Shown here piece by piece: positions 36,816 through 41,968 of a stretch of 41,968 nt of DNA; positions within the stretch are counted from its first letter, which is position 1; each line of letters opens with the position of its first letter. The position numbers and the translations under genes are program-made. Origin of the DNA: a virus (Duplodnaviria > Heunggongvirae > Uroviricota > Caudoviricetes). The stretch is taken from IMG/VR virus record IMGVR_UViG_2563366992_000001, positions 1-41,968 of that record, one strand, 5' to 3'. The notes under the pieces are model-generated. The model ran no database searches, had not been told where the DNA came from, and was given only the letters and a program-made list of their open reading frames with translations.

Positions 36816-37370
36816 ATGCTTATTGGCTATGTACGTGTGTCAACAAATGACCAGAACACAGATCTACAACGTAATGCGCTGAACTGTGCAGGATGCGAGC
36901 TGATTTTTGAAGACAAGATAAGCGGTACAAAGTCCGAAAGGCCTGGACTGAAAAAACTGCTCAGGACATTATCGGCAGGTGACACTCTGGTTGTCTGGAA
37001 GCTGGATCGGCTGGGGCGTAGTATGCGGCATCTGGTCATTCTGGTTGAGGAGTTGCGCGAACGAGGCATCAACTTTCGTAGTCTGACGGATTCAATTGAT
37101 ACTAGTACCCCAATGGGGCGCTTTTTCTTTCATGTGATGGGTGCCCTGGCTGAAATGGAACGAGAACTGATTGTTGAACGAACAAAAGCTGGACTGGAAG
37201 CTGCTCGCGCACAGGGACGAATTGGTGGACGTCGTCCCAAACTTACACCAGAACAATGGGCGCAGGCCGGTCGATTAATTGCATCAGGCGTTCCTCGCCA
37301 GAAGGTGGCGATCATCTATGATGTTGGTATATCGACACTGTATAAGAAGTTTCCGGTCGGAGATAAATGA
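36816..37370 (+). CDS. pin: serine DNA invertase (Pin/Gin/Hin family)
   Basis: N-terminal GYVRVSTNDQ catalytic-Ser motif and C-terminal HTH; adjacent to the invertible segment. Confidence 0.9.
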   Translation: MLIGYVRVSTNDQNTDLQRNALNCAGCELIFEDKISGTKSERPGLKKLLRTLSAGDTLVVWKLDRLGRSMRHLVILVEELRERGINFRSLTDSIDTSTPMGRFFFHVMGALAEMERELIVERTKAGLEAARAQGRIGGRRPKLTPEQWAQAGRLIASGVPRQKVAIIYDVGISTLYKKFPVGDK

Positions 37371-37405
37371 AACCGTAGCACGTCGTATGCAAGATCGTGC
37401 TGCGG
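37353..37405. repeat. direct repeat copy A (pin 3' end plus hairpin)
   Basis: CCGGTCGGAGATAAATGAAACCGTAGCACGTCGTATGCAAGATCGTGCTGCGG; contains an 8-bp stem hairpin 37375..37403. Confidence 0.55.
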
Positions 37406-37427: not shown

Positions 37428-38297
<870 letters not shown>

Positions 38298-38706: not shown

Positions 38707-40026
38707 ATGTGCAATAAGTTATCAGGGTGTTTTCATGCTGTCGGAAATGGAACTTTTTTTACTTCAAAAATCCGAGGGGAAGATGGCAATGTATTTAACT
38801 GGGGTTATGACTGTGGCTCTACAAGTGAAAATGCCATAAATAACATAATTAACTCATCTTATATGGAGTTTGAAGACGGTGATAGTATAGATATGATGGT
38901 CATTTCTCATTTTGACGATGATCATGTTAACGGATTGATAACTCTATTAAGAAAGCACACAATAAAAAGATTGGTACTTCCTTATAGTGATTGGGCTCAG
39001 TCTATTAGGGAAATATGTATAGATGGATTCCATGGGTTATCACGTTCTGCCGCACTTTTTCAGTTAAACCCAGCACTATGGTTATATAATAACGATCTTT
39101 CAAATCGTGTGGAAAAAATAATTTTAGTACAAGGCAATGGTGGACCAGAGAATCCTGAGGAACCGATAACTCCTGAAAATCCTCCGAACAATCATGATGA
39201 ACCTTTGATACTAAGAGATGATTCGGAGGAATTAAACGATCCTGAACAAGAAAGACACATAAATGATGCCAAGGATAATATGTTTATTGATTTAGGCATG
39301 CCAATCAATAGTAGCGGAATGAAAATATCAAAAATCAACCACATGCAACCTATTGGTGCACTCGACGGTATTTTTGAATTTGTATTTTATAATGCTGAAA
39401 AAACATTTAAAAAACTCAATCTTGTGTATGAGAAAGATGAGGAATTTTACGCCATAAAATCTCATGTTAAACTTGCCGATGCTAAGAAAGATATTCAAGA
39501 AACAATTGAGAGTATTAACCTACACCGAAGTATCAACTCTAGTATTGATGTACAATGGCGGGAGAAGTTAAAGATTTGCTACCAAAAACATTTCGGTAGC
39601 ACCAATAAGGCCCAGAACAATATTTCTTTATGTATGTATGCGTCACCTAAAATCACCCCGCATGATGGCCTTTTCTTTTTCGGTCAATGTCAGGAAAGTT
39701 ACAATATTCATTCTTCTGGTTTGATATTTACAGGGGATATTAATCTGACAACCCCTGTTCTAGATGATTTAAAGTCTCATCTGGGCGTTGATCGATGGAT
39801 GAATTGTGGATTGTTTCAGATCCCTCATCATGGTTCGGCGACGTGCTGGGAGAAAGGACATACTAAAAGGATCAAACCTGCTTATTTTGTTCAATGTGCA
39901 AACCCTACATTAAAACATCCCAGTCAGTTTGTTTTAGATGATTTGAATGGTGAAAAAAGCATTGTTTATAATGCATCCCGACAAAATCCAGTACATTTTT
40001 CATACTTTTTCAAAAAGTATATGTAA
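38707..40026 (+). CDS. standalone ComEC/Rec2-like metallo-beta-lactamase-fold hydrolase (putative nuclease)
   Basis: Motifs CFHAVGNGTFF, SHFDDDHVNG (H-x-D-x-D-H), FTGDI, QIPHHGS and KHPSQ in the order seen in ComEC-type MBL domains; AT-rich; AAGGGAG RBS. Confidence 0.55.
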   Translation: MCNKLSGCFHAVGNGTFFTSKIRGEDGNVFNWGYDCGSTSENAINNIINSSYMEFEDGDSIDMMVISHFDDDHVNGLITLLRKHTIKRLVLPYSDWAQSIREICIDGFHGLSRSAALFQLNPALWLYNNDLSNRVEKIILVQGNGGPENPEEPITPENPPNNHDEPLILRDDSEELNDPEQERHINDAKDNMFIDLGMPINSSGMKISKINHMQPIGALDGIFEFVFYNAEKTFKKLNLVYEKDEEFYAIKSHVKLADAKKDIQETIESINLHRSINSSIDVQWREKLKICYQKHFGSTNKAQNNISLCMYASPKITPHDGLFFFGQCQESYNIHSSGLIFTGDINLTTPVLDDLKSHLGVDRWMNCGLFQIPHHGSATCWEKGHTKRIKPAYFVQCANPTLKHPSQFVLDDLNGEKSIVYNASRQNPVHFSYFFKKYM

Positions 40027-40138
40027 GAATAAACTATCGAGGTTTGTCGGAAAACAAAGCTGTTAGGGTAATGTTATGTTGTAATATTATCCGTCTATAA
40101 TTGAATGCTGAGTCCGCTGATCGCTCTTGAAGGACAAC

Positions 40139-40177
40139 CATACTCAAATCTCTCACATTGCAGGAGATTTGAGTATG
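40139..40177. repeat. perfect 14-bp inverted repeat with 11-bp spacer spanning the recombinase RBS and start codon
   Basis: CATACTCAAATCTC (40139..40152) and GAGATTTGAGTATG (40164..40177); the ATG at 40175 lies in the right arm. Confidence 0.7.
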
Positions 40178-40777
40178 AACACGTTACCGTGGAACAAAGA
40201 CCGTATCATCGGCCAAAAAAGACCGCTTCAGATATCTCATATCTGGGGGATCCGAATCAGGCTTGAACTGGAAGGTAAAACGCGCGATCTGGCCCTGTTC
40301 AACATGGCTTTGGACAGTAAGCTACGGGGCTGTGATCTGGTTAAACTAAAAGTATCAGATGTTGCATATGGTAGCTCTGTTTCAAGCAGAGCAACGGTGT
40401 TGCAGCAGAAAACCGGTAGCCCTGTGCAATTTGAGATAACTAAAGGGACTAGAGAAGCCGTTACTGCATTGATAAAGCTTAGTAATTTGCATAGTAAAGA
40501 CTACTTGTTCCGATCTCGGGTCGGTACTAACCGGCACATATCAACCCGGCAATACAACCGAATTTTTCATGGATGGATAGAAAAGCTTGGTCTCGAAGAT
40601 TCGCTTTACAGCACACATTCCATGAGAAGAACAAAACCTTACCTGATCTACAAGAAAACCAAGAATCTCCGAGTGATCCAACTTCTGTTGGGCCATAAGA
40701 AACTGGAAAGTACAGTCCGTTATCTGGGCATTGAAGTCGATGATGCGTTAGAGATCTCTGAATCGATTGAAGTCTAA
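40175..40777 (+). CDS. small tyrosine recombinase, FimB/FimE-like size (200 aa), catalytic domain only
   Basis: Catalytic residues in order: LRGCDLVKLKVSDV (Arg I), HSMRRT (H-x-x-R), LLGH, TVRYLG (Tyr); no arm-binding N-domain; ATG at 40175 with AGGAG RBS. Confidence 0.65.
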   Translation: MNTLPWNKDRIIGQKRPLQISHIWGIRIRLELEGKTRDLALFNMALDSKLRGCDLVKLKVSDVAYGSSVSSRATVLQQKTGSPVQFEITKGTREAVTALIKLSNLHSKDYLFRSRVGTNRHISTRQYNRIFHGWIEKLGLEDSLYSTHSMRRTKPYLIYKKTKNLRVIQLLLGHKKLESTVRYLGIEVDDALEISESIEV

Positions 40778-40783
40778 GGTTGT

Positions 40784-40805
40784 CAGGGCTGCGATAGCAG
40801 CCCTG
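40784..40805 (+). other. perfect 9-bp stem / GATA tetraloop hairpin after the recombinase (no U-tract)
   Basis: CAGGGCTGC GATA GCAGCCCTG. Confidence 0.4.
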
Positions 40806-40866
40806 TGCCAAGAACGGACTTTCTTGGTTCTGTTATTAATTATGGAGATAAGAAATTTATTTATGG

Positions 40867-40925
40867 CACTATAATGAGACTTAGGAAATAAGGGGTTAAG
40901 CTATATGACACTATAAGAACTAAGG
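40867..40925 (+). promoter_or_regulatory. paired direct repeats containing -10-like hexamers upstream of the last gene
   Basis: CACTATAATGAGACTTAGG (40867..40885) and CACTATAAGAACTAAGG (40909..40925). Confidence 0.35.
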
Positions 40926-40972
40926 ATGGGTTTCTAACGGATGAGTATATAACCAATTTAATAGGTGTTACT

Positions 40973-41968
40973 ATGAACGGAATTTGGTATAAAAACACAC
41001 ATACTCGCATTCCTCGCTTTGAATCTACAACTCATATTAATCAGAAAGTAGGTTATGCTTATGAAACATCAAGCCATTTCGTGCACTTTTATGGGCGTGA
41101 TGTTGGATTCAATGTTGTTTCAGTCGGATTAACTGTTGTTGAGCATAAAAATGGAAATCTAGATGAGTGGGTGCAAAGGGTTTTTGGCGCTCAAGATATC
41201 CAGCCATTGAACAAAGAGGTTGGGCATGTCACTCAAGGGGTGTGGAGACCTTCTCTTTACTATATGAAAGATATCGAAGTCGCGCTAGGTATTGATGAGT
41301 TTGAAAAACGCGCATCAGAACAAGCTCTACGAGTTCTCATTGAAAAAATTGATGATATTTTATTATATGTTGAACCTAGCTCTAGTGGGTTAAATTCATA
41401 TAGCCATAAATGCAGAGAGTTGTTGATTCTCGCATGTACTGAGGTTGAAAACCAATGGGTGTCAATAATAAATAAAACAAATGGATTCAAGTCAAATGCA
41501 AGGTACAATACCAATGATTACATTAAACTTTTGGATAAATGTTTTTTAAAAGACTTCAGAATACAGTACTGTAATTATCATGGCCTTAGGTTCTTTAAAC
41601 CATTTGATAGTTGGTCTATAGCCAATCCAACCACATCATTAAGATGGTATGACGCATATAATAAAACAAAACATGACAGATCTGGCGCATTTTATTTTTC
41701 AACTCTGGAAAATGTGATGGAAGCAGTAGCTGCATGTATTGTGTTGTATTGCGTAAAATATGGACCATTTAGTTTAACAGAGTCTAAAACAACGTTATCA
41801 ACAATTGTAAATCAACACTTTTCCATTTCATTTGAAAATAGTGACCCTGCAAATTATTACATTCCTGAAATTGAACTTCCACAAGGTTCTAGAGGTGATT
41901 TGTTTCTTTATGATTGTTATCGTGAAGGGCATAATAAAAATTGGATTAAAGACTCTTTGATTATATAG
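40973..41968 (+). CDS. hypothetical protein (331 aa), AT-rich cargo gene
   Basis: ORF with AGGTG RBS; no motif I can place; stop codon is the last triplet of the window. Confidence 0.5.
   Translation: MNGIWYKNTHTRIPRFESTTHINQKVGYAYETSSHFVHFYGRDVGFNVVSVGLTVVEHKNGNLDEWVQRVFGAQDIQPLNKEVGHVTQGVWRPSLYYMKDIEVALGIDEFEKRASEQALRVLIEKIDDILLYVEPSSSGLNSYSHKCRELLILACTEVENQWVSIINKTNGFKSNARYNTNDYIKLLDKCFLKDFRIQYCNYHGLRFFKPFDSWSIANPTTSLRWYDAYNKTKHDRSGAFYFSTLENVMEAVAACIVLYCVKYGPFSLTESKTTLSTIVNQHFSISFENSDPANYYIPEIELPQGSRGDLFLYDCYREGHNKNWIKDSLII

Follow-up and report, generated by a model that had tools for sequence, protein, structure and literature searches.

The 41,968-nucleotide stretch analysed here, referred to as the window, covers positions 1 to 41,968 of IMG/VR virus record IMGVR_UViG_2563366992_000001 (Caudoviricetes) and is a prophage integrated at the tRNA-Thr(CGT) gene thrW, the tRNA lying at 1369-1444. 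The last open reading frame (ORF) of the window, called the target below, encodes a 331-residue member of a very large protein family that is labelled hypothetical in every source. With a confidence slightly below even, the interpretation favoured here is that this single protein suffices as an anti-phage effector of the abortive-infection type, and that the thrW prophage carries its gene as exchangeable cargo at its right end. The gene and its ribosome-binding site are as follows.

40973-41968, + strand: target gene, 331 residues, ATG start; the TAG stop codon forms the final three bases of the window
40963-40967, + strand: Shine-Dalgarno-like AGGTG, 5 nt before the ATG, as read from the sequence

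The ATG at 40973 is taken to be the correct start because the N-terminal MNGI.Y.NT of the target is kept among its homologs, and the AGGTG upstream agrees with this choice. The GC content of the ORF is 34.6%, as opposed to 55.4% in the structural genes of the prophage. Its product is identical to RefSeq WP_001564476.1, which is labelled 'hypothetical protein', and has no match in the Pfam, NCBIfam or PADLOC libraries. The sole library match came from PHROGs and was to phrog_19461 ('unknown function'), full-length and with an E value of 1.5e-187. This entry represents the same family as drawn from phage genomes. Since it carries no function, the match confirms merely that the target family occurs in phages.

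The family is both widespread and selectively conserved. A word-indexed search returned 679 homologs of nearly constant length and 48-81% identity from Enterobacteria, Vibrio, Acinetobacter and Bacteroidota, and a full profile search extended the superfamily to 2,635 clusters at 50% identity. Reference genomes add members from Planctomycetota, Bacillota, Cyanobacteria, Verrucomicrobiota, Nitrospinota and Alphaproteobacteria. Identities of 45-60% over this many phyla are consistent with horizontal transfer. Across members that are only 25-30% identical, residues E159, W214, W225, Y226, Y229, K233, H234 and Y296 are invariant, and R92, R148, E157, N230 and R236 are nearly so. Two helices hold the majority of these residues and carry the principal motifs.

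41402-41452, + strand: helix motif S-H-K-x-R-E-L-L-I-L-A-C-T-E-V-E-N, residues 144-160, with E159 invariant and R148 and E157 nearly invariant
41657-41680, + strand: motif Y229-N230-K-T-K233-H234-D-R236, with Y229, K233 and H234 invariant and N230 and R236 nearly invariant

The superfamily consensus of these helices reads (S/G)HKxRELLILACTEVE and WYxAYNxTKHDR. Within them the identity to the target across the superfamily is 64-69%, as against 15-16% in the N- and C-terminal parts of the protein. This is the pattern of an effector core that is conserved while the accessory parts vary, and the conserved residues point to an active site.

An AlphaFold2 model of the target, built from a 40-sequence alignment, has a predicted local distance difference test (pLDDT) score of 93.1 and a predicted template modelling (pTM) score of 0.91. 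It shows an N-terminal beta-rich domain, a helical core spanning residues 109-282 and C-terminal strands.

41297-41818, + strand: HEPN-like helical core, residues 109-282, with helices at 109-132 and 145-167, an insert at 168-223, and helices at 224-234 and 245-263

The predicted fold of this core resembles that of the HEPN abortive-infection nucleases. A survey of HEPN proteins describes a superposable four-helix, up-down core of ~100-120 residues in which an insert separates helices 2 and 3 (PMC3710099). The catalytic motif is Rx4-6H, the residue following the arginine being usually N, D or H, and a second conserved acidic residue is found upstream, typically in Ex3[KR]. The target model possesses both the four-helix core and the insert, but no conserved arginine lies 4-6 residues ahead of the conserved histidine. 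Instead, its motif is Y-N-K-T-K-H, in which H and N are present and tyrosine stands in the place of arginine, and the conserved residues K233, R236 and R148 lie nearby. It is proposed that Y229-N230-x-x-K233-H234 is the counterpart of the HEPN R-N-x-x-x-H, with Tyr replacing Arg. The invariant E159 and the nearly invariant E157 lie in the preceding long helix (T-E-V-E) and would be candidates for the acidic position, with no K or R at +4. A HEPN family that retains the histidine without the arginine has been described, and in that case other basic residues possibly compensate (PMC3710099). Because the fold is seen on the model, whereas the canonical motif is absent and every search for a sequence-level or profile-level link to a known HEPN family failed, the core is termed HEPN-like and not an established HEPN member.

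The position of the gene within the prophage provides further evidence for its character as cargo. The final 4.5 kb of the window is a low-GC tail, and the elements that delimit the prophage and occupy the tail are the following.

1459-2622: prophage integrase
37428-38252, - strand: PD-T4-3 (LEM-3-like GIY-YIG; PADLOC E 6e-140), the conserved first cargo gene after the pinE invertase
38707-40026, + strand: 439-residue metallo-beta-lactamase (MBL)-fold protein, annotated 'ComEC/Rec2 family'
40127-40777, + strand: small tyrosine recombinase of ~200 residues, catalytic domain alone; RefSeq start ~40175
Beyond the window (locus L001, 13822-15171; locus L095, 10316-11665): 449-residue DUF4145 protein, directly after the target and the last gene before attR
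Beyond the window (locus L001, 15573-15619): attR tRNA copy

In genomes that carry the identical region, attR is an exact copy of the tRNA-Thr 3' end ~1.9 kb past the end of the window, and the target is thus the second-to-last gene of the prophage. DNA homology to related prophages with other cargo stops at ~40810-40813, so the variable cassette that holds the target begins there. The related prophage of APEC 102026 keeps pinE, PD-T4-3 and the recombinase, but both slots flanking the recombinase differ: they hold a 'restriction endonuclease' and a different 290-residue hypothetical protein (locus L012, 7379-8290 and 9232-10104). Both slots are therefore exchangeable cargo sites. The recombinase, being kept between related prophages with different cargo on both of its sides, may help cargo exchange. 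The exact cargo of the window is present in 3 of 5,426 complete E. coli genomes. The gene directly after the target has a PADLOC match to PD-T7-3 (E 3.8e-15) and the canonical motif R-N-K-A-A-H, on which grounds it is predicted to be a DARNA-like single-protein HEPN tRNase. DARNA is the current name of PD-T7-3, a DUF4145 single-protein HEPN tRNase whose activator is single-stranded DNA (ssDNA) (bioRxiv 10.64898/2026.02.22.705581). Past attR come the remnant of an older integrase, a MarR gene and then vat. This vat island is that of avian and urinary pathogenic E. coli, and the locus beside it illustrates cargo swapping in a prophage hotspot in compact form.

The locales in which the family is associated with defence comprise the thrW cargo slot, the P2 hotspot, the neighbourhood of Gabija, NACHT, SIR2, reverse transcriptase and AIPR genes, and, for a distant branch, type I restriction-modification (R-M) operons. 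The region between gpA and gpQ of P2, defined as the old/tin defence hotspot by Rousset et al., holds homologs in a Salmonella prophage and in 12 E. coli genomes, and in phage SEN8 a homolog is found in the same context at one end of the record. A Morganella P2-like prophage carries its homolog between tail-fibre assembly and tail genes, and another is borne by a Pectobacterium integrative and conjugative element (ICE). On a conjugative IncF plasmid and in an E. coli island, the homologs have Gabija-type OLD/UvrD genes and a NACHT protein as neighbours. Another adjoins SIR2, a KAP NTPase and a reverse transcriptase, and yet another N6_Mtase with AIPR. The distant branch, whose members have ~312 residues and intact core motifs, accounts for 9 of 66 loci, all within type I R-M operons (L069, L074-L080 and L085; for example L076, 1115-9379). 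Seven of the nine share the order hsdM, hsdS, homolog, hsdR, YgjP-like metallopeptidase. When 376 neighbours from the 66 loci were clustered all-versus-all, no partner gene proved to be conserved in the full-length subfamily. The 150 immediate neighbours in diverse genomes included four integrases and single matches to Gabija, Lit, Old, AriA, SoFic and PDC-S04. As side observations on the P2 hotspot, a convergent HNH_2 endonuclease gene repeatedly follows the homolog (L013, 8053-9012; L015, 8075-9016; L093, 8053-8565), and the homolog of E. coli C21 is also preceded by a pair consisting of an RNase-A-like toxin and a contact-dependent growth inhibition (CDI)-type immunity protein.

Taken together, these results bear on an earlier sequence-only reading of the window, in which the gene was described as an AT-rich final ORF with a ribosome-binding site and no placeable motif, situated at a prophage end and for that reason perhaps an abortive-infection or exclusion protein. 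The description of the ORF holds in each respect, and the attR copy bears out the location. The functional guess is reasonable and has gained considerably from the validated defence genes that flank the target, from the P2 hotspot and from the HEPN-like predicted fold, while remaining a guess. In a survey of P4 hotspots, six of eight random loci that contained unknown genes alone gave phage protection. This base rate supports a high prior for such genes, with the limit that it was measured on P4 and not on this type of prophage.

Several observations weigh against a HEPN-like defence effector. The link to HEPN proteins comes from the predicted structure alone, and four-helix bundles can look alike without homology. 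In Foldseek searches with the model the HEPN matches were weak, and no match in the PDB was significant. A profile search of PDB sequences was empty. Pfam found no domain in the target, in 10 distant members or in 39 diverse members, and the scan of the latter at E values up to 10 gave no HEPN-clan match. The alignment of the target with a 25-sequence DUF4145 HEPN profile by hhalign had a probability of 0.07%, and alignment with a single DUF4145 sequence likewise gave no HEPN link. The arginine of the canonical Rx4-6H motif is absent, and H234 is only proposed to occupy the catalytic position. The 150 neighbours in diverse genomes are heterogeneous, with no recurring family and with many ordinary metabolic genes. 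In addition, the gene is rare in E. coli (16 of 5,426 complete genomes). A literature search turned up no experimental report on any member, and searches by accession, PHROG identifier and sequence fragment in the text or supplements of the main hotspot and discovery papers found no mention of the family.

Nevertheless, the favoured interpretation can be set out as a mechanism. We infer a defence role and a nuclease activity, along with a substrate and a trigger, from the predicted fold, the conserved residues and the genomic contexts. The variable N- and C-terminal beta parts would sense an infection cue or keep the enzyme inactive. The conserved helical core would then act as a divergent HEPN-like nuclease, with an active site made up of H234 together with N230, K233, R236, R148 and E159 in place of the canonical Rx4-6H. 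Once activated, the enzyme might cut RNA, by analogy tRNA or mRNA, and so halt translation before the phage cycle is completed. A bolder proposal, which is possible but doubtful, is that the target is the founding E. coli member of a very large clade of Arg-less HEPN-like immune nucleases. Such a clade would be characterized by a Y-N-x-x-K-H / E-x-E active site and by a conserved core joined to rapidly diverging beta-rich sensors. Its members would either stand alone as cargo that prophages, ICEs and plasmids carry or, in the distant branch, serve as a PrrC-like back-up between hsdS and hsdR of type I R-M systems.

If these proposals are true, the genes of a 'hypothetical' family that numbers thousands of clusters in many phyla and escapes both Pfam and PADLOC could be recognised as defence genes. 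The search rules for such nucleases would be widened by a HEPN-type active site that functions although its signature arginine is lacking. Moreover, standalone prophage cargo would be linked with R-M-embedded genes, one effector core serving in two regulatory contexts. Should the defence role prove wrong, the target would join the many unknown morons and hold little interest. At present it is a credible candidate for a new single-gene defence family, among thousands of similar candidates.

The closest functional analogues of the target are HepS and DARNA. HepS, a HEPN anticodon nuclease from the Gifsy-1 prophage of Salmonella (PMC13043305), is the best of these. Like the target, it is borne by a prophage, is self-sufficient, lacks a conserved operon partner, has scattered homologs and possesses a HEPN-type helical core. 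However, HepS homologs are shorter than 250 residues and carry a canonical R100-x4-H105, while the target has 331 residues, Tyr for Arg, and extra beta parts at both termini. On its published description, HepS is therefore ruled out as the identity of the target by size, by motif and by the absence of a HEPN match at the sequence level. DARNA possesses an N-terminal HEPN domain with R117-x4-H122 and a large helical C-terminal domain that binds ssDNA, and it belongs to a different family. The target has no match to PADLOC PD-T7-3 or Pfam DUF4145, and the profile-profile probability was <1%. AbiV, a lactococcal HEPN-family abortive infection protein (PDB 9bj5), has no sequence relationship to the target. 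It keeps a basic residue without the H, whereas the target family keeps the H without the R, and, unlike the target, it is without an N-terminal beta domain.

A different kind of likeness is offered by the anticodon nucleases PrrC and RloC, which share with the distant branch the placement in type I R-M operons, this branch lying between hsdS and hsdR. In EcoprrI, prrC occupies the slot between hsdS and hsdR. PrrC and RloC are recorded as 'Often found in R-M operon' (PMC3710099). These proteins possess an N-terminal ABC-ATPase and the canonical HEPN motif. The target family has neither, and the copy in the window is located outside an R-M operon.

Upstream of the target gene, the sequence-only reading had noted two direct repeats with -10-like hexamers and had taken them to suggest tandem promoters or regulator binding sites. 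Both quoted strings are present, CACTATAATGAGACTTAGG at 40867-40885 and CACTATAAGAACTAAGG at 40909-40925. The features of this leader are listed below.

40784-40805, + strand: perfect 9-bp GC-rich hairpin stem, just past the stop codon of the recombinase
40807-40828, + strand: terminator-like hairpin with a T-rich tail, following the previous hairpin
40862-40886, + strand: direct repeat copy 1, TATGGCACTATAATGAGACTTAGGA, with a perfect -10 hexamer TATAAT at 40870-40875
40904-40926, + strand: direct repeat copy 2, TATGACACTATAAGAACTAAGGA, with TATAAG at 40912-40917

When extended, the copies read TATGGCACTATAATGAGACTTAGGA and TATGACACTATAA-GA-ACTAAGGA and form an imperfect repeat of 23-25 nt with two indels and a spacing of ~42 nt. 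In gapped self-alignment the repeat scored 28, compared with 16.7 +/- 2.6 for dinucleotide-preserving shuffles, none of 300 of which reached 28. The repeats reported earlier are thus confirmed, but their interpretation as promoters or regulator sites fared less well. In the leader, a sigma-70 scan gave no promoter call on the + strand, since the -10-like hexamers at 40870 and 40912 each have a poor, unusable -35. The repeat was not seen upstream of distant or close homologs, including 75%-identical relatives; there, similarity begins at the ribosome-binding site and ATG, and in a 74%-identical E. coli allele the DNA match starts only at the start codon. Furthermore, by the measure that a repeat must fall in the top ~5% of the shuffles of its own region, equally strong repeats were held by 28 (16%) of 178 intergenic control regions taken at the same loci and by 10 of 55 family leaders (Fisher p = 0.40). 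The leader repeat is therefore real yet ordinary, unexceptional among intergenic regions.

A conserved regulatory element is rejected on the absence of the repeat upstream of both distant and close homologs. Likewise, a recombinase site or a cassette boundary is rejected because neither the rest of the window nor the downstream DNA holds a further copy of the unit. The promoter reading is not supported, but neither is it refuted: copy 1 has a perfect TATAAT. Since the hairpins, one of them terminator-like, stand between the recombinase and the target, the target probably has its own promoter somewhere within 40830-40970. Several unrelated family members also possess pairs of repeats in their leaders, at -164..-107 in L023, -90..-41 in L019 and L048, and -101..-46 in L022, relative to the start codon. 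These are imperfect 17-33-nt direct repeats, different in sequence in each, and their frequency, which equals that of the control regions, implies no function.

Other explanations of the gene must be weighed against a single-protein defence effector. The target may be a moron or accessory protein of the prophage without a part in defence, its HEPN-like bundle serving as a non-catalytic binder of nucleotides or nucleic acids that regulates, for example, host or phage physiology. The lack of the catalytic arginine would be expected of such a protein, and ordinary genes make up many of the neighbours in environmental genomes. This explanation is nevertheless judged unlikely, because the His, Lys and Glu are invariant and the Arg and Asn nearly invariant, because the family recurs in defence hotspots and within R-M operons, and because its distribution is patchy and apparently shaped by horizontal transfer. 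The same wide spread, together with insertions between unrelated genes of many element types, R-M operons included, and the HNH endonucleases that often adjoin the family in P2 hotspots, could be read as the mark of a selfish gene, one engaged in mobility or in competition between elements. Such a gene might, for example, encode a nuclease that drives the insertion of the gene into hotspots or attacks rival elements or satellites, instead of shielding the host from lytic phages. No DNA-nuclease or homing-endonuclease fold was found, however, neither target-site duplications nor terminal repeats were seen around the cassette, and many validated defence genes share the hotspot position, all of which makes a selfish gene improbable.

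A multi-gene system in which the target acts with one or both of its neighbours, the small tyrosine recombinase on the upstream side and the DARNA-like DUF4145 gene on the downstream side, would account for the fact that the three genes share a strand, are separated by short gaps and are jointly 100% conserved in three E. coli genomes. Yet in none of ~75 other loci does a DUF4145 protein or a recombinase of this kind accompany the family, DARNA acts as a single protein, related prophages without the target still keep the recombinase, and the hairpins separate the recombinase from the target, so that joint action is very improbable. Of the explanations considered, the least probable is a toxin restrained by an RNA antitoxin transcribed from the upstream repeats, that is, a type III toxin-antitoxin (TA) system similar to ToxIN or AbiF. 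Two repeats with a 42-nt period directly 5' of a HEPN-like gene, above the level of shuffled sequences, are reminiscent of such an arrangement, as are the repeat pairs upstream of family members in a few other lineages, and RNA antitoxins have been reported for AbiF-type HEPN toxins. There are, however, just two imperfect copies, similar over only ~24 of 42 nt and alignable only with two indels. The terminator-like hairpin is situated 5' of the repeats and not between them and the gene. The 75%-identical relatives are without upstream homology; the repeats are neither conserved nor, from the comparison with control regions, enriched. After the 178-region control and an Rfam scan without a match to any family, the repeats were rejected as a type III RNA antitoxin.

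Some minor features of the prophage tail complete the description of the locus. The prophage is in tandem with the older vat island, whose integrase is the remnant just past attR. Across the annotated start codon of the small recombinase there is a perfect 14-bp inverted repeat, CATACTCAAATCTC ... GAGATTTGAGTATG, at ~40139-40177. Between the invertase and PD-T4-3, at 37348-37404 on the + strand, lies a sub-threshold Rfam match to the Shigella small RNA CssrB, which scores 32 bits where the gathering score is 76 (E 6e-4) and is probably due to chance. By PADLOC and NCBIfam, the MBL-fold protein at 38707-40026 weakly resembles Lamassu LmuA, the DRT-associated MBL, Avs1a and the 6A-MBL enzyme, and it is probably a further defence effector. 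In strains FY10 and CS18F, its gene is interrupted by ISKpn26.

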